Virus record (IMG/VR): IMGVR_UViG_3300045988_165550 | Span: 40,311-104,310 of that record | DNA from: a virus | DNA: 64,000 nucleotides | Direction: 5' to 3' (one strand) | In this document: positions 4,933-62,074 of the stretch, in pieces | How the letters are laid out: each line of letters starts with the position of its first letter | Position numbering within the stretch: position 1 is the first letter of the stretch | Position numbers and translations under genes: made by a program | Notes under the pieces: model-generated | What the model was told of the DNA's origin: nothing | Databases searched by the model: none | What the model saw: the letters and a program-made list of their open reading frames with translations, nothing else

Positions 4933-4953
4933 TGATTAAAAGATTTATAGATT

Positions 4954-5601
4954 ATGGAAAAGATAGAATTAACAAAGGAACAGATAGAAAAGATAGCTGA
5001 AGGCATCAGCGTTATCTGCTTCCGTTTTGATTTGAAGACAAAAGAGTATGCGCTTTTTGAATATCCGAAAGTGAACATCTTTCACCAGTCGTGTGTATGG
5101 AATGATCCGTCTGAAGATTATTGTCGCAAGAAAGAAGTAAGACAGGTATTTCCTTCTTTTGAAGCAGAACATACCTATGACCATCCGATGCTTTTTAAGC
5201 CAAGTCTTGCAGAAGCGATTCAGGCAATGCCCCTCGACTTAATAGGAAAAGCAAATGCTTTCACCATTAAGCATAATGGCTTCAATGCCGATGGTAGTAA
5301 ACATGTGAGTATCGTTACTCCTTATCTTATCGGCGAAAAGATAGTGCAGATACCGCCTGTAAAGGATAAGAAGGAGGAAAAGCGTCTGCATCTTTCACCA
5401 TTAAAGGTTGGCGACCTCGTGGGCACTATTCTCGATGAGTATTGTCAGGTCAGTATAGATTGGCTTGCCCCTGATAACTATATACAATCTGCATGGCAGG
5501 GTTATCTGAATGATGTTCCGGAGGAATACTTGAATAAGCCTTTCCGTCCGATAAATATCATGACGGATTCAGAAAAACTTATTCATTTAATCATCAACTG
5601 A
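4954..5601 (+). CDS. hypothetical protein
   Basis: 215-aa ORF in the same operon orientation. Confidence 0.55.
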   Translation: MEKIELTKEQIEKIAEGISVICFRFDLKTKEYALFEYPKVNIFHQSCVWNDPSEDYCRKKEVRQVFPSFEAEHTYDHPMLFKPSLAEAIQAMPLDLIGKANAFTIKHNGFNADGSKHVSIVTPYLIGEKIVQIPPVKDKKEEKRLHLSPLKVGDLVGTILDEYCQVSIDWLAPDNYIQSAWQGYLNDVPEEYLNKPFRPINIMTDSEKLIHLIIN

Positions 5602-22500: not shown

Positions 22501-22836
22501 ATGATGATGAACAACCCAGGCTTGCTGAAAGCACTCGTCAACTACGACCGCAACTACTCAGGAAGAAACTCAGCAAGAAGGGCATTTGATGATGGCAACG
22601 TGGGTGATGTTCTTGCAGCAGGCACGCAAGCAGGCAATGGTAATCTTTCGCCTGGCGCATCAGCGGCAGGCGACCTGGTTTCCGCAAGCATTGCAAGCAA
22701 TGCGGCTCTCCTGCAAGCCGTGAATGCGCTCATTCAGCGTCTGAATGAACCTATCAACGCCAAGATCAATATGTACGGTCGTGACGGACTGCATGATAGC
22801 CTGAATAAGGCTAATCAGTTTATGAAGAACAAGTAG
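16549..22836 (+). CDS. tail tape measure protein
   Basis: 2095 aa with long coiled-coil regions, a central hydrophobic segment and a TP901-type TMP core-like region (NQAKTLLTGVIQKNLDMSDSLANIRKVSGL...). It is the largest gene in the window. Confidence 0.85.
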   Translation: MAGKIESIITMDGKQPIKVLQLLLDKAKELTDQMKQMKPGTEEYKEAEAKVKALQSAQVQTIKTTERLEAVVNNLGNTSLRNLRRALGEGKRKLEGLSEAEEEEAKHIRSLMKEVGDEVRLLEGKYVKIEKGLKNVRNQSDQWLSKAIVQQKDLVASLEKTGTSYHHNLSTLKQLEAEEDRRKGKMGISEARQAVSDSNASASDLRRAKATITEVRDRVPIGNASAIETYNRELQTIEERLNAVSGKAQKAAISWQQMRQVLSNPGKASGEDIKRTMDAIQQKIQQLPAGSKAVSDLRRQYAQLEQTLKGTRLSQAQLNDIVARSKTGKANINELRQTYKQLEEELNLINTKSEAFANRQKELKNLKKVIDDATGAANKQSNAWRTALKNLTAYVGMFAVFNQAKTLLTGVIQKNLDMSDSLANIRKVSGLLHQDIDKMAVSLSKIDTRTSVQELQNIAYAGAKLGIGEYGPEGLESFVKAANQVNVALKEDLGDEALSALSKITEVMGLIPKMGVEQSMLKTGSAIFKLASTSTATSGKIIDFSNRLLAMGKVGALSTSDILALGAAVDSMAIEPEVASTAFAKLITEIRKGTSSIEHDLGLAKGTLSEFLKEGRGIEALQTIFHKMRESGNVFALDSLFKDLGSDGSRLIKVMVTMAEKADMLDKAVATSRKAFDEGMAVTQEYNIQQDTAKGILERANNMWNKAFTNPDGINSVKQLTIAWYNLSRALTTSTASQKAVLGTIDLLVLSCKTLIALLPSLFGFFIGKGLAMAAVQLVNISKAVWAWVIAQKALNLAMASNVFGLVLGVLSTLYAYFQKNANAAQDAANAADHFTKSLSGVKSEVGRATLELDGYKRAIDGAKKGTKERQAAIDQFNNKFGSYLSKLLTEKSTVNDLKKAYNEAANAIERKVMAQAAEKDIQQHVAPKAGREAQLLYNYDQQAQKNKMGQYGSSWLKAFVDDNLAKHGLNYTINEVIRRSGVGKNYGSQHNKGLITAIKNTNGTPSAGYSWISSSKGVYGEKHIDHNSDKYSDQERMTAMAVAYIRQRGARVKSQQEVEKKYKDFPGIFVTEIPGGVNTGGDGGDSGNNGSGGGKNTPKTDNTAKNEEQKAKTRANALIANIKAFYEEQKRKYLEWVTQMNADGEKVSEGQQQQMLALLDAKTKTALGTARKSIATMSDDFKKFFSHMDEDVLIYDDETSKSLLESIGKSDISELHDLFQKLSGDLSRENNKTLSENLGALLDQIFANGSKELREAAEKLLAQQREIQKILNENDYTGAVNRSTRSNFDKLRFLRPASGVDAATEEGLQKMNDAFDKLTTKARSTVAILYTINPESQRFQQQFLDYLSVANSGFDFAKLNTQELKALYIELIKYTDSYTEAEKRKYDYAKKIADQAWAVNKRNLANQEALRKMQQESALFGKRTNMWSNLGLGDLTADPEVELMKMKMQMAEDYYAFVFKNSRNKQLLDEADKARQEAELAYVNQMATAMKNRLSQMQQLVQPIETFGAEVGKAFAEMRNDVSSAQEAIKNALKSMLESWANMALNDVNTQMWKAINDAGAKRGKRKAQPGIDAARANADANAVKEDFSNLGTKANPMYVRLVDEGAAYLTPQPQSNFEKMTPQQPSLGWNPDGTPINPNSQAIVPPYAPPATPEQQNTQSQGSGAPRAWEHRNRDNANAFYNDAATQTGAAAADAIAGGGSFADAAAGITGSFIGGVMNTEFKTGGGKSKEDKEKAEQLKKEKKHQKELSKEVKKGNKDREKVTTQGVQNITNVTDAGNKEQTEGTKIALNTGMAMTQTALTENLNKTQENNEAIIQSDADRTQAGMTFSIAGAIGKCFDFLGPIAGPIAAAGVMATLMGLLQWALNSAFSGGKKKSNTNTTNTKLVTGMLTYDSGNVQDLKPFVDENGELYWMADDNDKEQGKKPFMANNGEVYWTTEDDGRQMQGVKMLTSPTATTVNGQPSLVAERGPEIVIGRETTHAMMMNNPGLLKALVNYDRNYSGRNSARRAFDDGNVGDVLAAGTQAGNGNLSPGASAAGDLVSASIASNAALLQAVNALIQRLNEPINAKINMYGRDGLHDSLNKANQFMKNK

Positions 22837-29521: not shown

Positions 29522-31150
29522 ATGAAAGGTCTTTATGAAATTCTGACCGAGAAGAAGTGGATGGTGAACCCCGATTTCGTGCATGGCATTCGCAAAACGA
29601 TCGAGCAGAACTTAAATACTCATACAGCGTTTACCAAACCGGAAAAGACTTGTGGATTCGTCACTGCAAAGGATGATAAAGGCAACACCTACTATCCGGA
29701 GGAATATCAGATTTCCGAGGATGGCAAGCAGGTGAGAACTAACTATCAGCTCGACTATCCGGAAGATGATGAGCGGGCGCAGAACTTTCCGTTTGTTTCG
29801 GTTCTCACCGTAGATGGTCCTATCACTCGAAATGGCGGATATTGCTCTTATGGTTCTGTCGACCATCGCGATATGATGATGCGTGCGGCTGATCATCCGC
29901 TTTGCCGAGGTCATCTTTTTATCATCAATACTCCTGGCGGTTCGGCTTGGGCTAAAAATGATTATGCCTTGGCTATCGACTATGCCCACTCCAAAGGTCA
30001 AAAGGTTATTGCTCTGGTAGATGGCATGTGCGCCAGTGCAGGTATGTATCTCGCCTCTCTTTGCGATGAGCGATATTATTTGAATCCGAAAGATGAAGTT
30101 GGTTGTATCGGTGTGATGGCTGCCTTCTATACTTTGGCTAATGGCTCAAAGGATAAATATACCGATGAGACTTATCACGAGGAGTACGATCCAGAGTCAT
30201 TCGACAAGAATAAGGCTTACCGTGACATCGCCAACAAGAACGACAATAAGGAACTCGTAAAAGAGCTTGCCGAGTTGGGTGTTGAGTTCAGAACTGACGT
30301 AAAGAAAGCTTGCCCTAATGCAACCGATAAGCATCTTAAGGGCAAGATATTTAGTGCTGAAGACGTGAAGGGAATCCTTATGGACGACCAGAGCACCTTT
30401 ATGGGTTGCGTTCAGCGTTGCTTTGCTCTCTACAATGGCATAGCCGAGCCTATCAAACGAGAGGCTTCTATCCAAAAGCCAGAACCGGAAGACAACGAGC
30501 CTGAGCAGGCATCAGCATCCACTGCACAAGAAAATCATCAACATACAAACACCAAAAATCAAATCAATATGGCAAATTATCCAAAGATCAATGCCGCTTG
30601 CGGTATGCAGGATGGTCAGCAGATTGAGGTGAAGGAGGAAGGCGCATTCATGAATGCCCCATTGCTCGACACCCTCGAAGCTCATCTCGCATCGCAGGAG
30701 CAGGCAGTGGCTGATGCTAAGCAGAAAGCCACCACAGCAGAGCAGAGTCTTGCCGATCTCCAGGCAAAGCACGACGCACTCGCTGAAACCATCGCCCAGA
30801 AGGACGAGGAGATTAAGAACCTGAAAGAGGCAAAGGCTAAGGCAGATGAGGACATCAAAGCCCTCAACGACGCTAAGGCAAAGGCTGATGAGGAGAAGGC
30901 AAAGGCGGATGAGGAGTTGAAGACTGCACAGGCTTCGCTCGCTACTGCCCAGCAGACCATCGCCGACAAGGACGCTCAGATTGCTGAGTTGAACGAGAAC
31001 CCAGGTGAGGAGCCAGCACAGGGCGCAGCACCTCAGAACAACGGTGAGGGTGCAAAGGCTCAGAATCTCCGTGAGTTCGACCCAACGAAGTATAAGACCA
31101 ATGCCGAGCGCAAGGCGGCCTTCGAGCGTTTCAAGCGAGGCGAGGAGTAA
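29522..31150 (+). CDS. S49 (SppA/ClpP-like) head maturation protease fused to coiled-coil scaffold domain
   Basis: IINTPGGSAW and VALVDGMCASAGMYLASLCD match the S49 serine block. The C-terminal 200 aa are a KAKADE-repeat coiled coil. The gene lies directly upstream of the capsid gene. Confidence 0.8.
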   Translation: MKGLYEILTEKKWMVNPDFVHGIRKTIEQNLNTHTAFTKPEKTCGFVTAKDDKGNTYYPEEYQISEDGKQVRTNYQLDYPEDDERAQNFPFVSVLTVDGPITRNGGYCSYGSVDHRDMMMRAADHPLCRGHLFIINTPGGSAWAKNDYALAIDYAHSKGQKVIALVDGMCASAGMYLASLCDERYYLNPKDEVGCIGVMAAFYTLANGSKDKYTDETYHEEYDPESFDKNKAYRDIANKNDNKELVKELAELGVEFRTDVKKACPNATDKHLKGKIFSAEDVKGILMDDQSTFMGCVQRCFALYNGIAEPIKREASIQKPEPEDNEPEQASASTAQENHQHTNTKNQINMANYPKINAACGMQDGQQIEVKEEGAFMNAPLLDTLEAHLASQEQAVADAKQKATTAEQSLADLQAKHDALAETIAQKDEEIKNLKEAKAKADEDIKALNDAKAKADEEKAKADEELKTAQASLATAQQTIADKDAQIAELNENPGEEPAQGAAPQNNGEGAKAQNLREFDPTKYKTNAERKAAFERFKRGEE

Positions 31151-49846: not shown

Positions 49847-51976
49847 ATGGCAACAGAAGCAAAGACCACGAATTATTGGATTTCGAGCACAGCCCTCTAT
49901 ATTCAGCTCAATGCGATGGGAGAACCCGACTACACGCAGTGCAGCGTGGCATCGGGGGCTTCCATCCTTTGCTACATGCAGGGCGTTAAGGGCTTGGAAT
50001 ACGACGCAGGGCACAACTACCAGCGGTGGCCGCTTGTAGCCTACCCTTCCATCTTCCCCGATAGCGAGAAGAAATATGTGTATGCAGCGATACCCCGCAA
50101 ACGCCTCTCGGATAACGACCAGGCTACCATCGTGTTTCCTAGTCAGCGTATTGACCTCTACGGAAAAGCCATTCTTACTACCCAAGGCGAAGATGGCTCA
50201 ACAATAGAAACCGAAGGTGAGCAGATAGGTAATGAGCAGTTTTATTATATCTTCCTGCAAGGTATTATTTCGGAGGTAAAAACTGATAGCGACGGCAAAA
50301 CTAGGATGCGAGAATGGCAGCAGCATGTAGACTGCGGCAGTCTTGCCACCGATGAAGCCCTGGCAAGCGGTGGAGAAGGTCAATGGTGGAAGTATAATAG
50401 CGTGAGCGATACCGTCACCTTCCTCAAGACCATTCAGAAGGCGGATTTCGAGGCACTGGCTGCCCAATCGGCTACCATCAACAAACTTATCCTCGGCAAA
50501 AGCGAACTCACGGGCATAGCTACTGCCGAAACGCTAGAAAATAGCAACGACAAGGTGGTAACTCCTGTATACCTAGGCTTGTTTGGAGAAAGGCATTTCT
50601 TGTCGAAAGACAAAGATGATGTTGCTCATGGAACCATTACCTTTGAGAAGATACAGAAGTTTCTCGATGGTTTGATTGCTCAAAAAGAATCAGGCTTTAA
50701 AGGTGGAGCCACTTTTGGAGAGTTTATTGAAGGCATTCTGTTCGGTACGGGTGCCCGAGTTGATTCCCTCGGAAATGCCGAGTTTGAAAGCATTACGTCC
50801 CGAAGCTCCATCATCGCCAAGGAACTTATCGTGAACCGACAGACTGCGATGGAGAGCAACTTTGTCTTTACGGAAAGCGGATTGGTGGAGAAGGTAACTG
50901 AGCATGCACCGGAAAGCGAAGGTGGCAATACAACTTACACACTCCAGCTCCAGAAGCGATGGGAGAACGATTTCACGGCATTCAAGGAGAATGATGTGAT
51001 ATTAGCTTCTATCAATACGCTGCTGCAGGATGGCAAGTATTACGATATGTGGTTACGGGTACTTAGCGTGAATACGGTGAAGAATACCATCGATGTGGTT
51101 TGTTATCCGAACAATGAGGTCCCTAGCAAGAAAAACTATCCTCCCTGCGAGCTCGCAAGACTGATCCGATGGGGTAATGCTACAGACAGGGACCGACAGA
51201 GTTGTTGGTATATTTCATCGTCCGAGGGCTTACTCGTCTGGCTCGACCACGTTACCAAGCCAATCATCGATAAGAGTAATTATTCCGTAGCTATCGGCAA
51301 GCTTCCCGATGCACTGTCGTTTATCTTTGCTGATTATCCTCTTGCCGACAAGCGCGACGGAGCTTTCTATGCCAAATATCTCGCCGTGCAGAACATTCTC
51401 CAAACCGACTACGAGGGCAATGTAAAGCAAAATGTGGTGGATAGGGGGAAATGGTCGCTGGAAACCGCCCAAGGCAACAATCCTTATCGGAGTACGAATA
51501 CTGAGGTGCATGACGTATGGCACTACGGATGCCGATGGCGATGCTTGGTTGACAAGACCACGGATGAACCTAGATACGCCAGTACAGGATGGGCGTTCGT
51601 GGAAGGCAACCCTGAGTTCTCTATTGACATATCATCTTCCAATGGCTTCCGTTTCTCGAAGAATTATATCTTCGGTTGCAGGGATGATCTTGGAGAATTG
51701 CGACCTTTTACTATCATCACGATAAGAGGTATTCTCTACAACAATGATGTGACGGAGCATTTAACCAATGTTGTATGGACCCGAGATACCGGCAATCCGA
51801 CGGAAGATAACAGATGGGCGCAGCAGGTAGCGCAGCGTAAAGATCAGATTCATTTGCCACTCACGGGTAGCGACCTGGGCGACAACTGGGGCACCAACAA
51901 TCCCTGCGTCTTTAAATGCTCGGCAGAAATCAAGGATGGAGAAGTTTTAACCTCAGAATACGAAATAGAATTTTAA
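49847..51976 (+). CDS. tail/baseplate structural protein
   Basis: 709-aa ORF. Confidence 0.55.
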   Translation: MATEAKTTNYWISSTALYIQLNAMGEPDYTQCSVASGASILCYMQGVKGLEYDAGHNYQRWPLVAYPSIFPDSEKKYVYAAIPRKRLSDNDQATIVFPSQRIDLYGKAILTTQGEDGSTIETEGEQIGNEQFYYIFLQGIISEVKTDSDGKTRMREWQQHVDCGSLATDEALASGGEGQWWKYNSVSDTVTFLKTIQKADFEALAAQSATINKLILGKSELTGIATAETLENSNDKVVTPVYLGLFGERHFLSKDKDDVAHGTITFEKIQKFLDGLIAQKESGFKGGATFGEFIEGILFGTGARVDSLGNAEFESITSRSSIIAKELIVNRQTAMESNFVFTESGLVEKVTEHAPESEGGNTTYTLQLQKRWENDFTAFKENDVILASINTLLQDGKYYDMWLRVLSVNTVKNTIDVVCYPNNEVPSKKNYPPCELARLIRWGNATDRDRQSCWYISSSEGLLVWLDHVTKPIIDKSNYSVAIGKLPDALSFIFADYPLADKRDGAFYAKYLAVQNILQTDYEGNVKQNVVDRGKWSLETAQGNNPYRSTNTEVHDVWHYGCRWRCLVDKTTDEPRYASTGWAFVEGNPEFSIDISSSNGFRFSKNYIFGCRDDLGELRPFTIITIRGILYNNDVTEHLTNVVWTRDTGNPTEDNRWAQQVAQRKDQIHLPLTGSDLGDNWGTNNPCVFKCSAEIKDGEVLTSEYEIEF

Positions 51977-51987
51977 TTTTTTTAATT

Positions 51988-53172
51988 ATGGCTTTAGCAA
52001 GAAGTAACAGAAAGAAAATGGAGAAAGCTCCTGTCATTTACTCAATGCTCTGCAATATCGAAGTAATGGCAGATGGTTACACTCCTACTACGCAGAATTA
52101 CGATGCGGTCAGCGGAATCTTTTTTCCTGATTATTCGGCTTCGCCACTCAACCTTTTTCCTCGCTGCGTCTTGATTGATCCGGATTCGCCCGTAGCTTCC
52201 AAGACCTACAACAGTATGCTGAAATCGTTTGAGTGGTTTGAGGTGACGAAAAACGGAACGGTTTCCATCTATTCCAAGGGCGGTACGGTGGCTAGTGGCT
52301 ACCAAGTGATTGCATCCGGCGACTACACGGGTCAGCTCGTCGTCAAGAAAAACGGTAAGGTAGGCGAACCGAGAGCTTTGCGATTCGTAGGTATCTACGA
52401 GGAGGACGGTTACACCTACAAATTCGACCGAAGTATTCCTCTTATCACGAATGATGTGACTCCGGCAGGTTCCGAACTGATGATTGATTCACCTGCGGCA
52501 CTCGCCTACAACCCTCTCCGTATGCCCGAGCAGCAAACCATCAACGTAACCGTTATCAAGGGTACCACGGATATAACGAACGACGAGCGATGCAAGTTGA
52601 TGTGGTATCGACGTGACGCAAGGGGGACGGAAACGCCGCTCACCGCCAACGCCGATTATGATAATATCGAGGTGGTTTCCGCCGTGAAGAGCAAAAACGG
52701 CAGTATCACATCGCTGGTTATCGACCGTGAACTGATTGGTGAAGGACAGACCTACGTAGTTTACGCCATGTTCCGGGCTGATAAGAAGTTCCCTAGCTCG
52801 CCCGAGCCTTCCGATTCACGAGCCTATACCACCATCAAGCGCCAGTTTCCGCCCCTTACGTGCATCATCCGTGGCGATGGTCTCCGTTCTACGACGGATG
52901 CCAACTGCGTGAAGGCGATCGTAAGCGACAACCAGGGTGTACTCGACAACTGGAACAGATACCTTTACGCTTCATGGAAGGTGTCAGACGGAACCACGGA
53001 GATAGAAAGAGCACGCGGCGAAGAGGTGATGCTGCCTGCTGAATACGGCAAGGATTTCTTTTGCGATATTGAAGATAGAGGGACCAACAAGGTAATGGTT
53101 TCCGATACGGGTGAATGGCTTACCGATACCGATGGCAGCGTTATCATCACAAGAGATTACGAGGGTGATTGA
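51988..53172 (+). CDS. hypothetical tail protein
   Basis: The start was chosen at ATGGCT 51988 in an A/T-rich context. The track ORF 51916 would overlap the upstream gene by 61 nt. Confidence 0.55.
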   Translation: MALARSNRKKMEKAPVIYSMLCNIEVMADGYTPTTQNYDAVSGIFFPDYSASPLNLFPRCVLIDPDSPVASKTYNSMLKSFEWFEVTKNGTVSIYSKGGTVASGYQVIASGDYTGQLVVKKNGKVGEPRALRFVGIYEEDGYTYKFDRSIPLITNDVTPAGSELMIDSPAALAYNPLRMPEQQTINVTVIKGTTDITNDERCKLMWYRRDARGTETPLTANADYDNIEVVSAVKSKNGSITSLVIDRELIGEGQTYVVYAMFRADKKFPSSPEPSDSRAYTTIKRQFPPLTCIIRGDGLRSTTDANCVKAIVSDNQGVLDNWNRYLYASWKVSDGTTEIERARGEEVMLPAEYGKDFFCDIEDRGTNKVMVSDTGEWLTDTDGSVIITRDYEGD

Positions 53173-53222: not shown

Positions 53223-53690
53223 ATGCCTTATTATGTTAAAGTAACAAAGAAGGTGAGAGAGGCATTGTTGCCTGCTTACCTGGTAGTGCAGAGAACCTTC
53301 GATGGTAATTATCTGCTTTTTCAGTCTGCTCTCTCTAAGGTAGAGGGTAATACACTCTCCGAAAGATGTGCCGCTGTGGGCGGTTCGCTGATTACTCCTC
53401 TAGAGGTGGCTGGCGAGGTGAACGGCACAAGCTGCGCATCCTGCTACACCCCGAAGGAATATGGCGGAGACGAGGACGAGGACACTACTGAGGATTTCCG
53501 CCCAGGAGAGAACATTGAAGTCCTTCAGCCGGGAGAGAATGTTGAAGTTCCTCAGCCGGGAGAAAATTCTGAATCTCCAAAACCTGAGAAGAATACTGAA
53601 ACCCCTACCCCATCGGAGACTGAAGCAGAGAAGAAAACAGAGTCAGAAACAGATAAAAAAGAAAGTGAGGTAACAGATGAGCAAAAGTAG
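53223..53690 (+). CDS. hypothetical protein with PGEN-repeat acidic tail
   Basis: 155-aa ORF whose C-half is encoded by 27-nt tandem repeats. Confidence 0.5.
   Translation: MPYYVKVTKKVREALLPAYLVVQRTFDGNYLLFQSALSKVEGNTLSERCAAVGGSLITPLEVAGEVNGTSCASCYTPKEYGGDEDEDTTEDFRPGENIEVLQPGENVEVPQPGENSESPKPEKNTETPTPSETEAEKKTESETDKKESEVTDEQK
53502..53582 (+). repeat. 27-nt tandem repeat x3 (coding)
   Basis: ccaggagagaacattgaagtccttcag / ccgggagagaatgttgaagttcctcag / ccgggagaaaattctgaatctccaaaa, encoding (R/Q)PGEN-x-E-x-(L/P)(Q/K) units. Confidence 0.8.
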
Positions 53691-54816
53691 TGCAACCTTC
53701 AGAATTATCAGCATCTCGAATGGTAAGACTTATTACACCATCATGCAGTGTGACCAGGGCGATATTAACCAGTTCTATGATGATAGCGGTGCAGTGTTCC
53801 CTACCTTTGGAGGAACTAACTGCCCTACGGTGATATTCCTGGTTTATGATTCAGAGAATAGTGCCAAGTCTATCGTGGTGCCTGATGCCAACATCAAGTG
53901 GTTTGTGAATGGCGTGGAACTCGCCTTCTCCGGACAGATTTCTACCAACAAATTCAACGGCAGCGAAACCGGTCATTTCAAGCGCATCACCAAAACCATT
54001 AACGGTGTAAACATCCAGTGCCTTCAGATTATCAAGAATCTGACGGGCATTAACAGTAGAAGTTCATTTGCCATCACTGCCACCGCTACGGGTTTGGTAG
54101 AGAATACAAGCACCGAACTTTCCGCCCAGTTCCCTGTGACTATTGCCTATGGTGATACATCATCCAAGAAAGTAAGAATCCAGTCTCCTGCCAGCTATAA
54201 GGGTACTCCTTTCACCATTGAGGCGAGAGGTGGACAATGCCAGATTCAGGCCGTGGTTGTAACAAACTCGGGCGAAGGCTTCACGGTGGATGGCTATTTC
54301 TTTGAATGGTTCCAGCAGAAGGACGGCGCATGGACGAACCTTAATACTGATTCGGGGGCACATACGCTTACCGTATTGGAGACGATGGTTAACGGCAGTG
54401 CGTTGTTCATGTGCAAGGTGTATAGCGACGCAGGTAAACAGAATCTCTATGGCACGGATATTTGTAGCGTCAATGATATTTCCGACCCTTGGCAGGTTTT
54501 CCCTAACCCTGTGGCTAGCGAGACGAGCGACAAGCCTGCTACGCTGGTCTGCGTAAAGGGGAGCGGTATAGCTGCTGTCTTCAAGCCTTACGTTAAATCA
54601 GGTTCCAACAAGCTTGCCGCTGACAAATGTTCATTCACCATGGGCTTGTTTAATTCAGCAGGAACCAAGCTCAACGGAAAAGATTCGGCGGGCTACAATC
54701 CTCCGTTCCTTGATTCCGATAAGAAGACGGTTTTCGTGATTCCGGAGCCGTTTATCTCAGACAATGGTGGTATTGACGGCGAGATTGTCTGTGAGATTAC
54801 CGAAACTCAAAAATAG
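53677..54816 (+). CDS. hypothetical tail protein
   Basis: 379-aa ORF that overlaps the previous gene by 14 nt. Confidence 0.55.
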   Translation: MSKSSATFRIISISNGKTYYTIMQCDQGDINQFYDDSGAVFPTFGGTNCPTVIFLVYDSENSAKSIVVPDANIKWFVNGVELAFSGQISTNKFNGSETGHFKRITKTINGVNIQCLQIIKNLTGINSRSSFAITATATGLVENTSTELSAQFPVTIAYGDTSSKKVRIQSPASYKGTPFTIEARGGQCQIQAVVVTNSGEGFTVDGYFFEWFQQKDGAWTNLNTDSGAHTLTVLETMVNGSALFMCKVYSDAGKQNLYGTDICSVNDISDPWQVFPNPVASETSDKPATLVCVKGSGIAAVFKPYVKSGSNKLAADKCSFTMGLFNSAGTKLNGKDSAGYNPPFLDSDKKTVFVIPEPFISDNGGIDGEIVCEITETQK

Positions 54817-54822
54817 TTAGTT

Positions 54823-57561
54823 ATGACATTAGTTCGTGGAACGTTTAATATATCTAGCGTAGCAAACGGTGAGGATGCAGTCTCTTACGAGATTGTACCC
54901 TCTACCCGTTCGTTGCTCATAGAAGCTAATGGTAACTGGGCAGACGGCACGACAACAAGCGAGGGGTATGCCAAGATTACTTGTTCGGTATACAAGGTGG
55001 TCGGTTCCCAGCGAGAGTTGTGTATCGAGAAGTTGTACTATGTTGCGGACGGCGCTTTCATTAAAAGTTTTGCGTTCGATAAGGGTGTTTTTACTCTACT
55101 GATCCCCCGCAGTGCCACTGTAGTGGATGTTTCCGTCTTTGCTAGGGATAAAACTACAAATAAGTCTATCGGTGATCCGCTCGCTATGATAAGCATCCCT
55201 ATCATCCATAATGGAGCCAATGGCACCAGCGGCGCATCTCTCTTATGTCAGTATTCCGCTGATAATACAAATTGGCACGACGGATTTACTCCAGGCGACG
55301 TGTGGATGCGACAAAAACTGAGCACCGACATTGTCTGGAGCGGCTCGATGCGCATTGTAGGCGAGCCGGGAAAGTCTGGCGCGAACGGCAGTTACACGGA
55401 ATACTCTTTCGGCATCAGCGCAACAGAGAGCGTGGCGAGCTCGGCAATTTCCCCCGGTGTTGAAACTTGGCATGATATGCCTATCCCTACCACAAAAGAT
55501 AAGCCTTATCTGTGGATGAGGGTTATCAAGGTAGATAAAAAGGGCAATGAGTCTGAGCCAGCTTATTCTCGTCTGAACGGCAAGGATGGCAACAACGGAA
55601 CGTCGGTGAGCATCAAAGGCTCGAAACCTTCATCTTCTGCGCTGCCTAGCTCCGGTCAGAAGATGGGCGACTGCTATCTTATCAATGGTGAACTATGGGT
55701 GTATACGGGTGAAACGGGTTCGGGCATCGTTAACGGATTCGTGAACTGCGGCAACATCAAGGGCGAACCTGGCAACTCGGCAGTTCAGTATTTCTACCAC
55801 ATGGCATGGGCCACCGGAATCAAGACGGATTCTTCCGGCACGATGGTGGACGTGGAAGGTTTTACTACTTCCAATCCGGCTGGCTTGTCTTATGCGTATA
55901 TGGGCGTATGCTACAACACCGTAAGCAGCCCCGACCCTAGCGACTGGAATCAGTATAAATGGGTGAAGGTGGAAGGCAAAGATGCCGTAACCTACGAGAT
56001 AAAGCTGGATTCAAACACCGTGTCTGCCGACGGAAAGACGGGTAAATTCCTGACAACCAAGTTGGGTAAATATCGCCTTCTCAGGCATACGGGTGACAAG
56101 ACGGAGAACTGTTCGGGTATCTTAGATACCCTCGATTTTCTTATATTTCCGATAGGAGCGGATGGCGAGGCGCTTGGTGTTCTTTCGGGCGATAAGGATA
56201 GCGATATATATGGCACTATCACGGGTAATGGTCTCAAGGAAGAAAACGTATATCAGATAAAATTCTTCTGGTATTCAGGTCCCGCCGCTGTAGCTAATAG
56301 ATACAATTATCTTCAGGCGCTTAAAAAGACACAGGGTATTCCTACATCTACCATGGTGATTTCCGTTCTTGCCAGCAACACCTTCACCGTACTCCGTCAG
56401 GGAGTGGATGGCGAACGTGGCAGCAGTGGAGCCGTATGGCGGCAGCATCGTGGCTTTGTGGAAGCATCGGAGACGGCAACTTACAAGTATGAAGCTGGCG
56501 GAAATGATGAGAAGTTTATAGATGCAGTGCTTCTCACAGGCGCAAGCGGCAAGAAGACGTGGTATAGATGTATACAATCATATTACTCCACCGGCAAGTC
56601 TGATTCAAGGAATATTGTAGGTTCTACTGAGTTTGCCAAGTATTGGGATTCAGCCTATATGACGGTGGATTTCATCGCCACCGATTTCTTTCTTTCAGAG
56701 AATGCCAAGATTAATCTGTTGGGGTCTAACGAAATCAATCTCACGGATAAGAACGGACAGATTTTCGGTTCATACAGAATCCCTTCAAAGAATGGCGATG
56801 ATGGCGTGTATGCCTTGTGGCTAGGTGCGGCAACTGGAGGTGATGCTCCATTCTCGGTGACGAAATCCGGCGAGATATATAGTGTAAGCGGAACTATTGG
56901 CGGATTCAGAATCGGGGAGTATGGTCTCGGTACCCGTGAGGGCAGCAATATGTTCCTTAAGAATGACTATATTCATTTCGGAAACTTTGCAGCCCTTACC
57001 AATTTCGACGGATATTGTATAGAACTGGGCAGAAGGAATCACCGTTGCCTGACGGCTGTTTCTTCTTCCAGTAGCGGTAATGATATTTATGAAGGTGGTT
57101 TTTTCTCTGTTCTTGTCAATAGGCCAATAGCCAAATATGCTGCTGCCCTACATTTGCAATGCGATTGGACGATTGATGCTGGAGAGATTGATATGACAAA
57201 TGCATACGAAGGCAACCATGCCATACTCATCGAATCGGGCGATGTGGCAGGTATCAGACCTTCTTTTGTCCGCATTAATAAAGACTTGGCTCTATCCGAC
57301 TACAATTTTAACGTCGAGTGCTATAATGAGACTAACACAATAACCCTGACGCTGCCTGCTAGTCCGAAATGGGGACAGCATTATGTGGTTATCCAGCGTG
57401 GCAATGGGCGGATAAACTTCAAGTCAGCACTCAACACCAATATCCACGACCTCAACAGTGGCGCAAATGACAAAACCTGGTATTCCGGCACTCGGGGGCA
57501 GGTAACTTGGTTCTGGTATGACGGTACGGAATGGATGGTGAGATATGTAAATAGACAATAA
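54823..57561 (+). CDS. tail fibre-like protein
   Basis: 912 aa, Gly/Ser/Thr-rich with a beta-rich composition. It is the last large gene before the DGR target. Confidence 0.55.
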   Translation: MTLVRGTFNISSVANGEDAVSYEIVPSTRSLLIEANGNWADGTTTSEGYAKITCSVYKVVGSQRELCIEKLYYVADGAFIKSFAFDKGVFTLLIPRSATVVDVSVFARDKTTNKSIGDPLAMISIPIIHNGANGTSGASLLCQYSADNTNWHDGFTPGDVWMRQKLSTDIVWSGSMRIVGEPGKSGANGSYTEYSFGISATESVASSAISPGVETWHDMPIPTTKDKPYLWMRVIKVDKKGNESEPAYSRLNGKDGNNGTSVSIKGSKPSSSALPSSGQKMGDCYLINGELWVYTGETGSGIVNGFVNCGNIKGEPGNSAVQYFYHMAWATGIKTDSSGTMVDVEGFTTSNPAGLSYAYMGVCYNTVSSPDPSDWNQYKWVKVEGKDAVTYEIKLDSNTVSADGKTGKFLTTKLGKYRLLRHTGDKTENCSGILDTLDFLIFPIGADGEALGVLSGDKDSDIYGTITGNGLKEENVYQIKFFWYSGPAAVANRYNYLQALKKTQGIPTSTMVISVLASNTFTVLRQGVDGERGSSGAVWRQHRGFVEASETATYKYEAGGNDEKFIDAVLLTGASGKKTWYRCIQSYYSTGKSDSRNIVGSTEFAKYWDSAYMTVDFIATDFFLSENAKINLLGSNEINLTDKNGQIFGSYRIPSKNGDDGVYALWLGAATGGDAPFSVTKSGEIYSVSGTIGGFRIGEYGLGTREGSNMFLKNDYIHFGNFAALTNFDGYCIELGRRNHRCLTAVSSSSSGNDIYEGGFFSVLVNRPIAKYAAALHLQCDWTIDAGEIDMTNAYEGNHAILIESGDVAGIRPSFVRINKDLALSDYNFNVECYNETNTITLTLPASPKWGQHYVVIQRGNGRINFKSALNTNIHDLNSGANDKTWYSGTRGQVTWFWYDGTEWMVRYVNRQ

Positions 57562-57576
57562 TTGATAGATAAAAAA

Positions 57577-57861
57577 ATGAAATTGAATTTTGAAAATGTA
57601 GAGGTTTATACCTCTCTCGACAAGTCTGCTTGTCAGGTAATGAATCTTCGCAAGAGTATTGCGAACCTCATCTACAACCAGGGCAATGGTCTGGGTTTGG
57701 AAGGAGTAGCCCTTGCCACGAAGATGTGGAACGGCGCTGCCGACACGGAGTACACCGAGCGTGAAGCGGAAATCATCCGCAACCTGGTAGTCCAGAATTG
57801 CGCTCCCTGCGTAATAGATGCAGTCCTCGCCATAGTAGGCAAGGAAGATAAAGATAAGTAA
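57577..57861 (+). CDS. hypothetical small protein
   Basis: The ATG at 57577 was chosen; the track ORF begins at TTG 57562. Confidence 0.5.
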   Translation: MKLNFENVEVYTSLDKSACQVMNLRKSIANLIYNQGNGLGLEGVALATKMWNGAADTEYTEREAEIIRNLVVQNCAPCVIDAVLAIVGKEDKDK

Positions 57862-57898
57862 TTTGAGAAGTAAATAAATTCTTTTAAAAAGTAAGATT

Positions 57899-58642
57899 AT
57901 GGGTATTCAAACAAAGAAAATGAGCGAGTGGCTTGCCGCAAACGGGCAGGCTATTACTAATGCTTCAGCAGTAAGCATGAAGGCTTACATGGAGCAAAAC
58001 CTGCGTTCTTTACAGGATGGTGTTTACATCGGTAAGATCCAGAAGGAAACATGGGGAACTTACATGAGATGCGACCCATGGCAGACTACGGAGATCGGTA
58101 TCAAAAAAGCCGATGCCGATGCTATTGTCGTTCAGCACGGCAGTCTGCGTCTCGGTATTGCCTTAACCGAACCTGGTGCTATGAAGTGGGGCAGTGTTCA
58201 GAATGAAAATTCTGTAGGTTATCAGACATCCAGCGATTGGAGCCTTCTCGACGGTAAGACGAGAACAGCGGCAGTGATGGCTAGTAGTTATTACAAGAAC
58301 GATGATCCTGCTACCTACGCCGTAGCATATTGCTACAAATATTCAAAATCGCACACTGGCGACCCTGGAGGAGATGTGAGCATCCCCGCCAAGTCATGGT
58401 ATCTTCCTGCAACTGGCGAACTTGAGATTATCCGATCTCATTTCGAGACCGTCAATCTTGCTTTGCAGCGAATCAAGAATGCAGGCAAGCAGAGTGCTGA
58501 TTTGCTCCAGCGGACGGCTTACTGGTCTAGTGTCGAGAATTCCGGCAACTATGCGTGGAATCTGAACTTTGGCGGTGGCATTCACGGCGGCGACGGTAAG
58601 GTTGACGCTTCGTTTCGAGTTCGCCCGGTCACAGCATTTTAA
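57899..58642 (+). CDS. DGR target protein, DUF1566 / C-type-lectin-fold-like receptor-binding protein
   Basis: The C-terminal WYLPATGELEII...YWSSVENSGNYAWNLNF...VRPVTAF matches the DUF1566 pattern. Its last 130 nt are the VR of the adjacent DGR. Confidence 0.9.
   Translation: MGIQTKKMSEWLAANGQAITNASAVSMKAYMEQNLRSLQDGVYIGKIQKETWGTYMRCDPWQTTEIGIKKADADAIVVQHGSLRLGIALTEPGAMKWGSVQNENSVGYQTSSDWSLLDGKTRTAAVMASSYYKNDDPATYAVAYCYKYSKSHTGDPGGDVSIPAKSWYLPATGELEIIRSHFETVNLALQRIKNAGKQSADLLQRTAYWSSVENSGNYAWNLNFGGGIHGGDGKVDASFRVRPVTAF
58509..58638 (+). repeat. DGR variable repeat (VR)
   Basis: 130 nt, collinear with the TR at an offset of 859 nt. There are 14 mismatches, and at all of them the TR base is A. 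Confidence 0.92.
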
Positions 58643-58672
58643 TCATTTTATCTCTTTATCTCTTTACCTCTT

Positions 58673-58687
58673 CCGGCCGTAGGCCGG
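58673..58687 (+). other. GC hairpin downstream of VR
   Basis: ccggcc-gta-ggccgg, 35 nt after the VR end. It is comparable in position to the hairpin/cruciform that assists DGR target recognition. Confidence 0.4.
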
Positions 58688-58710
58688 CAAGCAAGAATGC
58701 CGATCAAGAA

Positions 58711-58738
58711 AAGTCTGGCGGCGTAAGCCGCCGGACTT
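58711..58738 (+). terminator. hairpin with GTAA loop after the target gene
   Basis: aagtc-t-ggcggc-gtaa-gccgcc-g-gactt. No clear T-run follows. Confidence 0.4.
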
Positions 58739-58867
58739 CTGTACCCTTCCATAAAAGAGCATGCGGCAGTTTTTTGTACAGTTGAGGTATTTTGATACGT
58801 ATAAAAAAAATTACAAAAAAAATATAACGCTATCACGATTTATTAGCAGCATAATTGATAAATATTT

Positions 58868-59215
58868 ATGGCTTTAGCAAAGGATTTACAGATATACAAG
58901 GATACGTTCGAACTGGTTGATAAACTCACGGAGATGAAACAGAATTTTCCGCGAATGTATCGCTATGATCTGGGTGAAAAGATGACGAACGTTGCGCTCG
59001 AACTCTTTGAATATATCCAGCTAGCGAATATGTATGCGGATAGTCGCCATCACTACATGATGGGATTCCGTGTCAAGTTTGAACTCCTTAAAACAATCCT
59101 TCGCCTTGCTTTCCGTAGAAAGCTATTCTCGGAGAAGCAGGCCGCGGATATTTGTCGGTTAACTACCATCATCGGTAGACAGGCTACAGCTTGGGGAAAT
59201 TCAAAGAAAGGTTAG
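58868..59215 (+). CDS. avd: Avd-like four-helix-bundle accessory protein of the DGR
   Basis: 115 aa and basic, with the pattern of the 23S-rRNA-IVS / four-helix-bundle family (LQIYKDTFELV...RYDLGEKM...). It sits between the target gene and the TR. Confidence 0.8.
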   Translation: MALAKDLQIYKDTFELVDKLTEMKQNFPRMYRYDLGEKMTNVALELFEYIQLANMYADSRHHYMMGFRVKFELLKTILRLAFRRKLFSEKQAADICRLTTIIGRQATAWGNSKKG

Positions 59216-59367
59216 TCCTGCTCTGAATTAAAAGCAAGAGTACAATCGGCTAAGGTTTATTGTAGAATGTGACTCTCCATTAATAATGGTCTCGCCGCTG
59301 TCACCTCGCACCGTCATTTGTACGACGGAGCGAAGCAGCTAAGATGTATAACCCAGAGCGAGAAAAT

Positions 59368-59497
59368 AGCGGACGAATTACTGGTCTAGTGTCGAGAATT
59401 CCGGCAACAATGCGTGGAATCTGAACTTTGACAATGGCAATCACGGCAACAACGGTAAGGTTGACAATTCGAATCGAGTTCGCCCGGTCACAGCATT
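59368..59497 (+). repeat. DGR template repeat (TR)
   Basis: Non-coding 130-nt copy of the VR, rich in AAC/AAT triplets, 31 nt upstream of the RT start. Confidence 0.92.
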
Positions 59498-59528
59498 AGT
59501 TTGAAGAGTTAGAGAAATAGGAACAATT

Positions 59529-60815
59529 ATGGTAAAGGAAGAAGATATATTAGAGGCTTATGAGAATTGTCTAAAAGATAAGGCATCATCTCCTGATGCT
59601 ATCAGGTTTGTTGTAAATCTCTTTGAGAATATCACAGATTTAACGGATGCTATCAACTCTCGTACCTACGAACCGCTTCCATCCATAACATTTGTCGTTT
59701 CTCGGCCTGTATACCGGGAGGTATTCGCTGCTAATTTTCGTGATAGAGTTATTCATCACTACATCGCACTTCGATTAGAACCGCTATTCGAAGGCGTGTT
59801 CAGCGAGAGAACTTATAATTGCCGTAAGGGTAAAGGACAGCTATATGGTGTCATGCAGTTGGCGGCAGATATTAAGGAATGTTCCGAAAACTTCACTCGT
59901 CCATGCTGGTATCTGAAATGCGACATGAAAGGATTCTTTATGAGCATACCCCGAAAGCAGTTGGCAGATAAGGTAGATAAGTTTATTCTCGAAAATTACA
60001 AGGGCGATGATATAGAAGATTTACGCTATCTGTCTCGTGTAACAATTATGAATGATCCTACGAAGAATTGCATCAGGCGTTCTCCTGAAGAAATAATGAA
60101 GATGGTTCCGGCAGGAAAGACGCTGAGGGGCGCGAAGCCTGGCCATGGTCTCCCTATCGGGAATCTCACGAGCCAGCATGATGCCAACTTCTGGCTCAAT
60201 GATTTTGATTGGATGTTTGATATATTCCTCCATATCTATTGGCATGGGCGATATGTCGATGATTTCTACGTGATTTATCCCGATAAGCAGTCGTTACTCG
60301 ATGCGATTCCTAAAATCCGATCTTATCTGATAGTTTTAGGCGCAACCCTACATCCTAGAAAGATAGAAATGCAGTCGGTATATAAAGGCATCACATTTAC
60401 GGGTATGGTAGTGAAGCGGGATAGGATTTACGCCAGCAACCGCATGGTAAGCAACTTCGAGCAGTTGATTCATTACATGAATACGCTCTCCGAGGGCTTC
60501 AGCATAGAAACGCTGCAACATTACGTCTGTTCCATCAATAGCTATCTTGGCTTGATGCGTCATTGCAATAGCTACGATATACGCAAGCGGATCATGCTGA
60601 AGATGGATAGACGTTTCTATCGGTTTCTCTACATTAAAGGTAGGTATGAATGTGTGCGTATCAAACAGAAATATAAAAGAGATTTAATAAACAGGAAGTT
60701 ACTGCGGAATAATAATTCCAAGAACTTTGATATATTGATAAACAATTATTATGACGAAAATGAAAATCATAAGAGCAGACCTTCCTACCGAGAAGGAGAT
60801 AAGCTCGCTTCTTGA
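59529..60815 (+). CDS. DGR reverse transcriptase
   Basis: RT motifs are present: NFRDRVIHH, the DGR-diagnostic LPIGNLTSQ (I/LGxxxSQ) and the catalytic YVDDF. Confidence 0.92.
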   Translation: MVKEEDILEAYENCLKDKASSPDAIRFVVNLFENITDLTDAINSRTYEPLPSITFVVSRPVYREVFAANFRDRVIHHYIALRLEPLFEGVFSERTYNCRKGKGQLYGVMQLAADIKECSENFTRPCWYLKCDMKGFFMSIPRKQLADKVDKFILENYKGDDIEDLRYLSRVTIMNDPTKNCIRRSPEEIMKMVPAGKTLRGAKPGHGLPIGNLTSQHDANFWLNDFDWMFDIFLHIYWHGRYVDDFYVIYPDKQSLLDAIPKIRSYLIVLGATLHPRKIEMQSVYKGITFTGMVVKRDRIYASNRMVSNFEQLIHYMNTLSEGFSIETLQHYVCSINSYLGLMRHCNSYDIRKRIMLKMDRRFYRFLYIKGRYECVRIKQKYKRDLINRKLLRNNNSKNFDILINNYYDENENHKSRPSYREGDKLAS

Positions 60816-60893
60816 TAACGGAGCAGAAATAGAAATCTATATGAAGGACGGAAAAATCAACATGGAAATAGAGACTTCGCCATAACACCTCCT

Positions 60894-60921
60894 ATAAACT
60901 ATAAACTATCAACTATCAAAA
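60894..60921 (+). repeat. heptad array x4
   Basis: ataaact ataaact atcaact atcaaaa, downstream of the RT gene and preceded by cctcct. Confidence 0.8.
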
Positions 60922-60966
60922 AAGCCCCACGATCCATCACGGACGGCAGGGCTTCATCGTTTTTTT
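60922..60966 (+). terminator. weak hairpin plus T7
   Basis: aagccc...gggctt is a 6-bp stem with a 21-nt loop. A T7 run lies at 60960..60966. Confidence 0.35.
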
Positions 60967-61206
60967 AATACCTTTTTAAAGATTATAACACCATAACCCT
61001 TGCGGGTCATGATAGATTGGCTGCAAAGGTACGAAGAAAAATCCAAATAACTATAAAAAATTCCGAGAAAAACAAGAAATTATCTGTAAATTTTCGGCTC
61101 GTCCCGAAGAATTATCCGAATTTTTCGCAACGGAAATCATACGGATAATGGCATTATTCCATAAAAATTATACAGCTCATGTCCGCCCCGTTTCCCAGAA
61201 AAATGC

Positions 61207-61214
61207 TACCTTTG
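61207..61214 (+). promoter_or_regulatory. Bacteroidota -7 promoter box
   Basis: TACCTTTG lies about 300 nt upstream of the likely start at 61512. Confidence 0.45.
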
Positions 61215-61295
61215 CATCATAAGATTACCCGAAAGCGAACGCTAGGAAACAGGAAGAAAATCATTAGGAAATCATCCGAAAGTGATTGAAAGATG

Positions 61296-61350
61296 ATTGG
61301 AAAATCATTGGAGGACTATTGGAGGACTATCGGAGGATTATTGGAGAACC
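61296..61350 (+). repeat. 11-nt tandem repeat x5 (GGAGG-containing)
   Basis: attggaaaatc attggaggact attggaggact atcggaggatt attggagaacc. Confidence 0.8.
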
Positions 61351-61511
61351 GGGAAAGGAACCCACCCTTCCCACTCGCCCCCATTCCATGCGATTCCGTC
61401 ACAGGTCAGCCCCCATGTTTGCTGCCCTCAACGCCCACTCCCGAGCCATCTTTGCAAGTGTTAACGCCCCCACGAGGAGGCATATTGTCGAACCATAAAA
61501 ATGTAAAGATT

Positions 61512-61961
61512 ATGGCAAAAGTTCAACCGAGCGATTTGTTCACGTCTATCAGTGGCAAATTGTGCAGCAAGGAGGGCACCTACATCGCCCTCAACAAGCA
61601 GACTGGAAAGATGTATTCAGCCGTGCATCATCATTATTCCGATTCCAACACCGGAGCGCAGCAGTCCGTGCGCAAGCTCTTTGTTGCGAAGAGCAAGTTT
61701 GCCACCAAGTGGTGGAAGGCCAACAAGCCATCCACCGAGAACCCGAAGGGAAGCGACAACTACCAGTTGGTACTGAAGGCCTACAAGGGTCAGCACAAAA
61801 TCGGCAACCGATTCAGCTACCTCCGCACCCTGGTAACCGATGATTTGAAGGTGAAGCTGGGCGACCTGGATATTACGGGCGAGATTACCCCTGATGCAGG
61901 TGCCGATGCAGGCACCACCGAAGGTGGCGGCGGCACTGGCAGACCAGGCGGCGAAGGATAA
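61512..61961 (+). CDS. hypothetical protein with Gly-rich tail
   Basis: The start was chosen at gattATGGCA 61512, the start context shared by many genes here. The track ORF extends in frame back to ATG 61293 through repeat and Pro-rich sequence. Confidence 0.5.
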   Translation: MAKVQPSDLFTSISGKLCSKEGTYIALNKQTGKMYSAVHHHYSDSNTGAQQSVRKLFVAKSKFATKWWKANKPSTENPKGSDNYQLVLKAYKGQHKIGNRFSYLRTLVTDDLKVKLGDLDITGEITPDAGADAGTTEGGGGTGRPGGEG

Positions 61962-61966
61962 ATAAG

Positions 61967-62074
61967 AGTTAATAGTTAATAGTTGATAGTTTATAGGGCA
62001 TTCTTGCTCAACGGCGCTAGCCTCTATCAACTATTAACTATCAACTATTAACTATCAACTATTAACTATAAACT
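61967..62074. repeat. composite palindromic element: 4 inverted heptads, conserved core, 7 direct heptads
   Basis: agttaat agttaat agttgat agtttat | ag ggcattcttgctcaacggcgctagcctct | atcaact attaact atcaact attaact atcaact attaact ataaact. Confidence 0.85.

Follow-up and report, generated by a model that had tools for sequence, protein, structure and literature searches.

Positions 57,899 to 60,815 of a 64,000-nucleotide (nt) stretch of viral DNA (IMG/VR record IMGVR_UViG_3300045988_165550, positions 40,311 to 104,310; hereafter the window) hold an intact diversity-generating retroelement (DGR) cassette whose two repeats differ only at adenines. Along the plus strand, the map of open reading frames (ORFs) runs from a target gene that carries a variable repeat (VR) at its 3' end, through the accessory gene avd and a template repeat (TR), to a reverse transcriptase (RT) gene (Table 1). 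The cassette closes a tail-fibre module, as had been noted from the letters alone: the upstream ORFs at 51916-53172, 53677-54816 and 54823-57561 match tail and tail-fibre PHROGs.

Table 1. Elements of the DGR cassette and its surroundings, in window coordinates.
Feature	Position	Strand	Basis or remark
DGR target gene, 247 amino acids (aa), putative receptor-binding protein with C-terminal Lcl_C/DUF1566 (C-type-lectin-like) domain	57899..58642	+	ORF, profile and fold matches
Variable repeat (VR)	58509..58638	+	130 nt, 14 differences from TR, each at a TR adenine
Never-mutated GC-rich 3' block of VR (...GTTCGCCCGGTCACAGCATT), IMH (initiation of mutagenic homing)-like end	58618..58638; TR counterpart 59477-59497	+	33 TR/VR pairs
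T/C-rich tract with TTTAYCTC repeats	58639..58672	+	between VR end and hairpin; conserved across the family
GC-rich hairpin/cruciform CCGGCC-GTA-GGCCGG, 6 bp	58673..58687	+	34 nt downstream of VR
Second hairpin, 12-bp GC stem, GTAA loop	58711..58738	+	window sub-clade only (window, L001-L004, L015)
avd (accessory variability determinant), 115 aa	58868..59215	+	Pfam bAvd, PHROG
Conserved structured RNA, about 165 nt, avd 3' end to TR	59199..59363	+	RNAalifold covariation
H1	59199-59228	+	spans avd stop codon
H3	59241-59264	+	9-bp (6+3) stem; UAAG tetraloop here, UACG in several relatives
H4	59271-59278 with 59371-59379	+	pairs GACUCUCC with TR 5' end; no compensatory support
Single strand	59279-59289	+	contains invariant TAATGGTC
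H5-H7	59290-59363	+	long interrupted stem, interior loops, AUUUGUAC loop
Template repeat (TR)	59368..59497	+	collinear with VR; 130/130 identical in window and L001-L004
Purine-rich TR-to-RT spacer, 31 nt	59498..59528	+	short in the whole family
DGR reverse transcriptase, 428 aa	59529..60815	+	Pfam RVT_1, PHROG, PDB profile match

The identification is carried by a direct comparison of the two repeats, the only copies in the window. They align collinearly and without gaps, at an offset of 859, with 14 mismatches, and the TR base is adenine at all 14 (TR positions 59376, 59377, 59409, 59431, 59433, 59434, 59440, 59448, 59449, 59451, 59466, 59467, 59472 and 59473). Given 38 adenines in the TR, the hypergeometric probability of this distribution is 4.4e-9, and mismatches at any other base number zero. 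All the differences occupy codon position 1 or 2 of the target coding sequence and change nine codons between TR and VR: N207A, N218Y, D225G, N226G, N228I, N231G, N232D, N237A and N239F. The initial annotation had given the same mismatch positions, adenine bias, codon positions, amino-acid changes and gene order, and our comparison reproduces each of them. It had also described the VR as the last 130 nt of the coding sequence; the 3'-terminal location holds, but the coding sequence runs 4 nt further (its last sense base and the TAA stop). Its interpretation as an adenine-specific DGR is supported by the repeat bias, the Avd, the DGR-type RT, the target fold and the tail context alike.

The proteins expected to act on these repeats are both present. 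The gene between target and TR, annotated earlier as Avd-like, scores above threshold for Pfam bAvd (55.4 bits, cut-off 40) and matches the PHROG "Avd protein of DGR" (4e-22); against NCBIfam DivGenRetAVD it reaches 45.9 bits, under the cut-off of 80. The RT matches Pfam RVT_1 (56 bits) and a reverse transcriptase PHROG (5e-77), and its best PDB match is bRT of the Bordetella phage DGR (8ub7, E 7.6e-18), with the match split into two stretches. The IGNLTSQ and YVDD motifs that had been read in the translation are found as LPIGNLTSQ and RYVDDF and align to bRT, PIGNLTSQ with PIGSLTSQ (I181, Q187) and RYVDDF with RYMDDI (D215, D216), while LKCDMKGFF aligns with LKSDFSKFF (D138) and an arginine is kept at the position of R74. 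The roles of these five bRT sites (D138, D215/D216, I181, Q187 and R74) are described in bioRxiv 10.1101/2023.10.23.563531. The catalytic and DGR-signature residues are all kept; inactivating RT mutations had been named in the initial annotation as a possible refutation. Motifs and best PDB match place the RT in the DGR clade. It is about 100 aa longer than bRT, with about 35 aa inserted around residues 153-204 and a tail at the C-terminus.

Does the VR vary in nature while the TR stays constant? An RT search of IMG/VR returned 29 loci at 61-98% identity, and four more came from bacterial genomes or metagenome-assembled genomes (MAGs). A TR/VR pair in the same layout accompanies the RT in 28 of the 29 IMG/VR relatives and in all four of the others, 32 cassettes altogether. 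In the window and the 28 IMG/VR pairs, 386 of 415 mismatches lie at TR adenines; in the four genome or MAG relatives the count is 50 of 51. Four relatives (L001-L004) share the window TR over its full length, and these five genomes carry five different VRs, each departing from the TR at TR adenines only. The cassette DNA around the TR is 88-92% identical between the window and these four. Identity of the TR in genomes whose cassettes otherwise differ by 8-12% therefore indicates continuing selection.

The same pattern is seen at the protein level. In the protein collection the target has 1069 homologues, and those at 83-96% identity to it form more than 100 distinct 90%-identity clusters. Variability was scored on an alignment of 87 metagenomic proteins 84-96% identical to the target. 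In this set nearly all variation falls at the TR AAY and GAC codons: the 12 positions encoded by TR AAY codons show 7-14 residue types each (2.1-3.4 bits), and the two encoded by GAC codons show 4-5; the mean entropy of residues 1-203 is 0.18 bits. Three scaffold codons that contain adenine, Y208 (TAC), E213 (GAG) and K234 (AAG), never vary, which is what selection against fold-breaking variants would produce. The initial annotation had named VR polymorphism restricted to TR adenines as the population test of its reading, and the public assemblies bear this out strongly, as variation between assemblies. On that between-assembly basis, the cassette is evidently an evolving DGR.

The 3' end of the repeat behaves differently from the rest. 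In the 33 TR/VR pairs, every TR adenine lying 0-18 nt from the TR 3' end is unchanged in the VR, and at 19-20 nt just 2 of 10 differ; detected TR 3' ends vary by up to 2 nt among cassettes. The AAT codon directly upstream of this block differs in about 19 of 22. One of the adenines in the block is the third base of a CGA codon, at which every substitution is silent; selection alone therefore does not explain the sharp boundary of the block, which points to the mechanism instead. In the Bordetella phage, complementary DNA (cDNA) synthesis begins 17 nt before the TR end. The GC-rich block would be the functional counterpart of the IMH end that the Bordetella phage VR carries.

Past the block the flanks of VR and TR diverge fully, T/C-rich on the VR side and purine-rich on the TR side. 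The T/C tract leads to a GC hairpin found at +27 to +37 in nearly all relatives, where its stem has changed in compensatory fashion (CCGACC/GGTCGG, CCGTCC/GGACGG, CCGCTC/GAGCGG, CCGTTC/GAACGG). At the equivalent place, Bacteroides uniformis phage Bacuni F2 carries an 8-bp GC hairpin, GGTACGGC-GAAA-GCCGTACC. In the Bordetella phage, a hairpin or cruciform after the VR is required for homing, as Guo and colleagues reportedly found in 2011.

Further signals flank the cassette genes. The second hairpin beyond the VR has no T-run on the plus strand, and the scan marks it as terminator-like on the minus strand; it is possibly the terminator of the target gene. At the other end, a 44-aa ORF (60751-60885, plus strand) overlaps the RT in its C-terminal tail, which is poorly conserved; after it, at about 60920-60968, come a GC stem and a T-run (…GGGCTTCATCGTTTTTTT), the probable terminator of the DGR operon. 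Terminator-like matches numbered 7 against 3.0 expected, none of them a usable site, and a scan for sigma-70 promoters, whose consensus is not appropriate for Bacteroidota, stayed at background.

To account for these observations we propose a cycle modelled on that of the Bordetella phage. A TR-containing RNA would be reverse-transcribed by a complex of RT and Avd, with misincorporation opposite template adenines, and the mutagenised cDNA would replace the VR at the 3' end of the target gene. The invariant GC-rich last 20 or so nt of the repeat and the downstream hairpin would guide this replacement. Twelve AAY and two GAC codons would thereby be randomised in the C-terminal lectin-like domain, giving at least 15^12 x 4^2, or about 2e15, protein sequences by our own arithmetic. 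A structured RNA upstream of the TR may act as the scaffold on which RT and Avd bind.

The layout of this RNA departs from the Bordetella phage model. RNAalifold, applied to 14 non-redundant family members, predicts 49 base pairs between the last avd codons and the TR, and 23 of these show compensatory changes. In the alignment, 95.7% of cells are paired, against 37-45% when the partners are slid by 1-3 columns; the 23 doubly changed pairs compare with 2-8 in the slid controls, and none of 500 shuffles reaches the observed covariation. An alignment of 474 columns that reaches from the avd end to RT +130 has 24 compensatory pairs, every one of them upstream of the TR and none within or after it. 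We found no conserved structure in the TR-to-RT spacer or in the first 130 or so nt of the RT ORF (consensus -1.6 kcal/mol, 1 compensatory pair). In 25 IMG/VR relatives the avd stop-to-TR gap is 147-153 nt and the gap from TR to the RT ATG is 28-31 nt. The initial annotation had singled out the short 31-nt TR-to-RT spacer as an architectural difference; the shortness is real, but it is not peculiar to the window, since the spacer measures 28-33 nt across the family and in phages F2 and F4. It goes together with the structured RNA on the upstream side of the TR, which the initial annotation had not noted.

The upstream RNA appears to be a family trait. Its motif TAATGGTCTCGNNNCTGTCA occurs in 29 IMG/VR contigs, 25 of which had already been found through the RT, and a covariance model of it (R1) finds all family members and misses phages F2, F4 and BS-TP1. 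Folded as a single sequence, the F2 spacer is no better than its shuffles (z +0.68), and Rfam returns nothing relevant in 57000-62000 at E <= 1. Two further contacts are ambiguous or lack covariation: the pairing partner of a GAYUCUCC element, for which three sites tie at 84% (two in the TR, one in the downstream spacer), and the primer strand, whose candidate duplexes with the TR 3' block, UGUGAC 59268-59273 with GUCACA 59486-59491 among them, have no compensatory support. We also considered a pairing between the two TR ends, GGACGAA with UUCGUCC, and dropped it: by eye it shows no compensatory changes, and VR coding constrains these sequences. Within the RT ORF, 86-102 nt downstream of the TR, a hairpin GCATCA-TCTCC-TGATGC (59583-59599, plus strand) is invariant or nearly so in the family, without compensatory changes, and overlaps the conserved KASSPDA codons; it is possible that it represents a residual downstream RNA element, or else coding constraint.

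In the Bordetella phage BPP-1 the layout is the reverse: the TR abuts avd and a 140-nt structured spacer lies downstream, whereas here the structure lies upstream and 31 unstructured nt follow. Within the BPP-1 spacer are A56, where priming occurs, the stop duplex formed with avd, a single-stranded 'thumb ring', a long interrupted RT-binding stem and a tetraloop-capped Avd-binding stem-loop, and a stem-loop just downstream of the TR occurs in 207 of 278 Avd-containing DGRs (bioRxiv 10.1101/2023.10.23.563531). The window family has no such downstream Avd-binding stem-loop, typical of BPP-1-type RNA, and the priming site therefore cannot be placed by analogy with Bordetella. The upstream RNA does resemble BPP-1 elements in its 9-bp stem with a UNCG-type tetraloop, its long interrupted stem and its invariant single strand. 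We tentatively suggest, with rather less than even confidence, that the DGR RNA scaffold is permuted relative to Bordetella, the elements that bind Avd and RT, and maybe those that prime, being placed in the domain 5' of the TR. In such a permuted scaffold, cis-priming at the TR 3' end would need an upstream segment to fold back across the template, for which the UGUGAC/GUCACA duplex is one candidate.

Alternatively, the upstream structure may lie outside the DGR reaction altogether and serve instead in termination or attenuation, in RNA processing or in the control of RT translation, a role that we find somewhat doubtful but well worth considering. In favour of this, H1 extends across the avd stop codon, as would befit coupling at the level of translation or transcription; compensatory support is missing for the helix to the TR 5' end, and the partner of GAYUCUCC is ambiguous. 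Against such a role, the structure is found only with the window DGR family and directly beside the TR, its elements resemble those of the Bordetella phage DGR RNA (bioRxiv 10.1101/2023.10.23.563531), and the opposite side of the TR is here unstructured.

What does the cassette diversify? The initial annotation had called the target a DUF1566/C-lectin-like protein, and structural comparison upholds this. A profile built from diverse target homologues matches PDB entries 8q4e, the C-terminal domain of Legionella Lcl (1e-5), and 4eps, a fimbrial or pilus-tip protein of Bacteroides ovatus (4.6e-5), where phmmer with the target against PDB gave noise only; PF07603 is precomputed on the records of many homologues 83-96% identical to the target. 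With an alignment of diverse 50%-cluster representatives, AlphaFold2 gave a model with a mean predicted local distance difference test (pLDDT) of 85.7 and a predicted template-modelling score (pTM) of 0.85; the 87 near-identical homologues gave merely pLDDT 33. Foldseek matched this model in PDB to 4eps (E 2.1e-4) and 8q4e (E 4.3e-4), both with probability 1.0, and classical C-type lectins rank after these two with low probability. Among predicted viral structures (BFVD), the matches are DUF1566 phage proteins and the C-termini of long tail-fibre or peptidase-S74 proteins, with template-modelling scores (TM-scores) of about 0.6 over the whole 247 aa. The predicted fold is thus that of the Lcl C-terminal (DUF1566) domain, like that of phage tail-fibre tips, and the protein most likely binds a host receptor. 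From its gene position, its fold and its closest cultured relatives we infer that it is a tail protein, carried on the virion, whose diversification would serve tropism switching.

It is also conceivable, though unlikely, that the DGR is real and its target is an adhesin or surface-recognition factor, expressed from the prophage and serving the lysogen. The phage appears to be temperate, the best solved structural matches are the bacterial surface proteins 4eps and Legionella Lcl, and most Bacteroidales DUF1566 DGR targets are reportedly cellular (bioRxiv 10.1101/2024.11.15.621889). The target gene, however, is co-oriented with the tail and tail-fibre genes and follows directly after them. By eye, its translation has no obvious N-terminal signal or lipoprotein sequence, and its whole-protein fold matches the C-terminal modules of long tail-fibre proteins at a TM-score of about 0.6. 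In addition, the homologous Bacuni VR has been proposed to explain host range (PMC8143477). A place for the target in the phage tail fits these observations better.

The neighbourhood of the target gene has features of its own. Similarity between the window and L001-L004, the genomes with the identical TR, begins somewhere between 57868 and 58439 in the individual genomes, and blastn finds no match in any of the four for the tail and tail-fibre genes at 53529-57868. The DGR cassette therefore adjoins a mosaic tail-fibre region that is open to exchange. A 99-aa TTG-start ORF (57562-57861, plus strand) separates the 912-aa tail-fibre gene from the target, and another relative, L012, has one at the equivalent place (4807-5106). 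The window ORF has no Pfam or PHROG match, and a role as fibre assembly or adaptor protein is only a guess.

Some members of the family are decaying. In L012 (IMGVR_UViG_3300045988_107635, 5880-6010) the sequence that normally precedes avd (...AATTAGTGGCAATAAG) is fused to RT codon 4 or so (GCAGAATGTATT...); this clean deletion removes avd, the upstream RNA, the TR and the RT start, and retains the target gene, VR, T/C tract and hairpin, a natural knockout. In L006 the TR/VR pair (5079-5206 versus 5843-5970) has 11 non-adenine mismatches. Its target is 92% identical to that of the window, and its avd-TR-RT segment is of the type found in L005, whose own target is 63% identical; L006 looks like the product of a recombination after which its VR has yet to be overwritten. 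The TRs of L014 (5845-5970) and L026 show five sites with G in the TR and A in the VR (for example GAATT to GGGTT). Either adenines have been lost from two AAT codons of these TRs, or the VR is older than the change.

Could the window copy be such a relic, recently inactivated, whose differences record past activity after homing had ceased? The deletion in L012, the mismatches in L006 and the G-to-A differences in L014 and L026 show that relatives do decay. In the window itself, however, RT, Avd, TR, hairpin and upstream RNA structure are intact and non-adenine mismatches are absent, and its TR is identical to those of four genomes with divergent cassettes, which indicates continuing selection. 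We give inactivation little credence. An ordinary duplication or gene-conversion tract with a chance adenine bias, for which nothing speaks beyond the existence of two repeats, is already refuted by the hypergeometric result and by the same bias in 32 other cassettes, beside an Avd and a DGR-clade RT, and its probability is negligible.

The relatives also point to a host. One, with a 78% identical RT and an adenine-only TR/VR pair, is integrated in the complete chromosome of Segatella copri G8 (NZ_CP146523, about 3.11 Mb), and another lies in a Prevotella MAG; the phage is therefore most likely temperate and of Segatella/Prevotella. Related contigs measure 100-108 kb. Megablast of the cassette against GenBank phages gave no match, and paper searches gave nothing on Segatella copri DGR prophages specific to the window phage family and nothing on HbP1 in connection with DGRs. 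Elsewhere in the window, a 2095-aa ORF with tape-measure PHROG matches (16549-22836, plus strand) lies upstream of the head-maturation protease (29522-31150), an unusual order for the structural module of a tailed phage, and a 525-aa protein with HNH/homing-endonuclease PHROG matches (10318-11895, plus strand) sits in a low-GC stretch (0.38).

Taken together, the window very probably carries a functional DGR, borne by an uncultured temperate Segatella/Prevotella phage of about 100 kb, in which cDNA synthesis and homing would proceed much as in the Bordetella phage. Several points weigh against this conclusion. The target itself scores 28.6 bits against Pfam Lcl_C/DUF1566 (PF07603), below the gathering score of 34.9; it has no PHROG functional annotation, its Foldseek TM-scores to solved structures are modest (0.43-0.45), and its place in the virion is predicted from context. 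The VR variation is seen between assemblies and not in the reads of one sample. Some relatives are decaying, as described for L012 and L006. Finally, the RNA layout is unlike that of the sole mechanistically characterised DGR, with no conserved stem-loop downstream of the TR.

DGRs have been catalogued by the tens of thousands, most richly in the gut, and DUF1566 targets have already been published for Bacteroidales phages. As a DGR, the window cassette thus adds little conceptually: it is a canonical instance of a well-known class. What is newly described is the covarying hairpin after the VR, the unmutated last 20 or so nt of the TR and the covarying RNA upstream of it. The family offers a clean natural experiment, with an invariant TR and many VRs across dozens of assemblies, and it belongs to a widespread family of temperate phages of about 100 kb tied to Segatella copri, a host with few characterised phages. 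The unmutated 3' block and the post-VR hairpin are relevant to the homing step, which is still poorly understood. The upstream RNA, for its part, suggests that DGR RNAs can be organised unlike the only one studied structurally, a point that bears on the prediction of priming sites and on the engineering of DGRs with compact cassettes.

Set beside known systems, the cassette shares much with mtd-avd-TR-brt of Bordetella phage BPP-1, the mechanistic prototype. In both, the order is target, avd, TR and RT, the differences are adenine-specific and fall in AAY codons, and the VR ends a receptor-binding gene whose product has a C-type-lectin-like fold. Both have an Avd, an RT with IGxxxSQ and YxDD motifs, a GC-rich unmutated 3' end of the repeat and a hairpin after the VR. 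The differences lie in the target, which is Mtd there and a DUF1566/Lcl_C protein here, in the distant RT similarity, and in the hairpin, which here stands about 34 nt past the end of homology, after a T/C-rich repeat tract.

The Legionella pneumophila DGR and the CLec2 'category d' targets (DUF1566, DUF823, Fib_succ_major; PMC5758913) have, as the window cassette does, the VR in a DUF1566-type C-terminal domain. About half of the 'category d' targets are short proteins with little beyond the domain (Wu et al. 2018, PMC5758913). LdtA, the target in Legionella, is a lipoprotein of the cell surface, whereas the window target is encoded by a phage, in its tail module, and has no obvious signal sequence by eye.

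The closest cultured RTs, 44-48% identical, are those of Bacteroides uniformis phages Bacuni F1, F2 and F4 (Hedzet et al. 2021, PMC8143477). These phages also have a Bacteroidales host, a temperate-like character, a DUF1566 target, the same gene order and a GC hairpin after the VR, and in F2 and F4 the TR-to-RT gap is 33 nt and the avd-to-TR gap 128 nt. Homology of an RNA element in these phages to that of the window family is unproven, the covariance model missing F2 and F4. Their genomes are 40 kb in place of about 100 kb, and they carry two VRs where one was found in the window. In the Bacuni phages, single-nucleotide polymorphisms concentrated in the DUF1566 VR have been proposed to explain differences in host range (PMC8143477).

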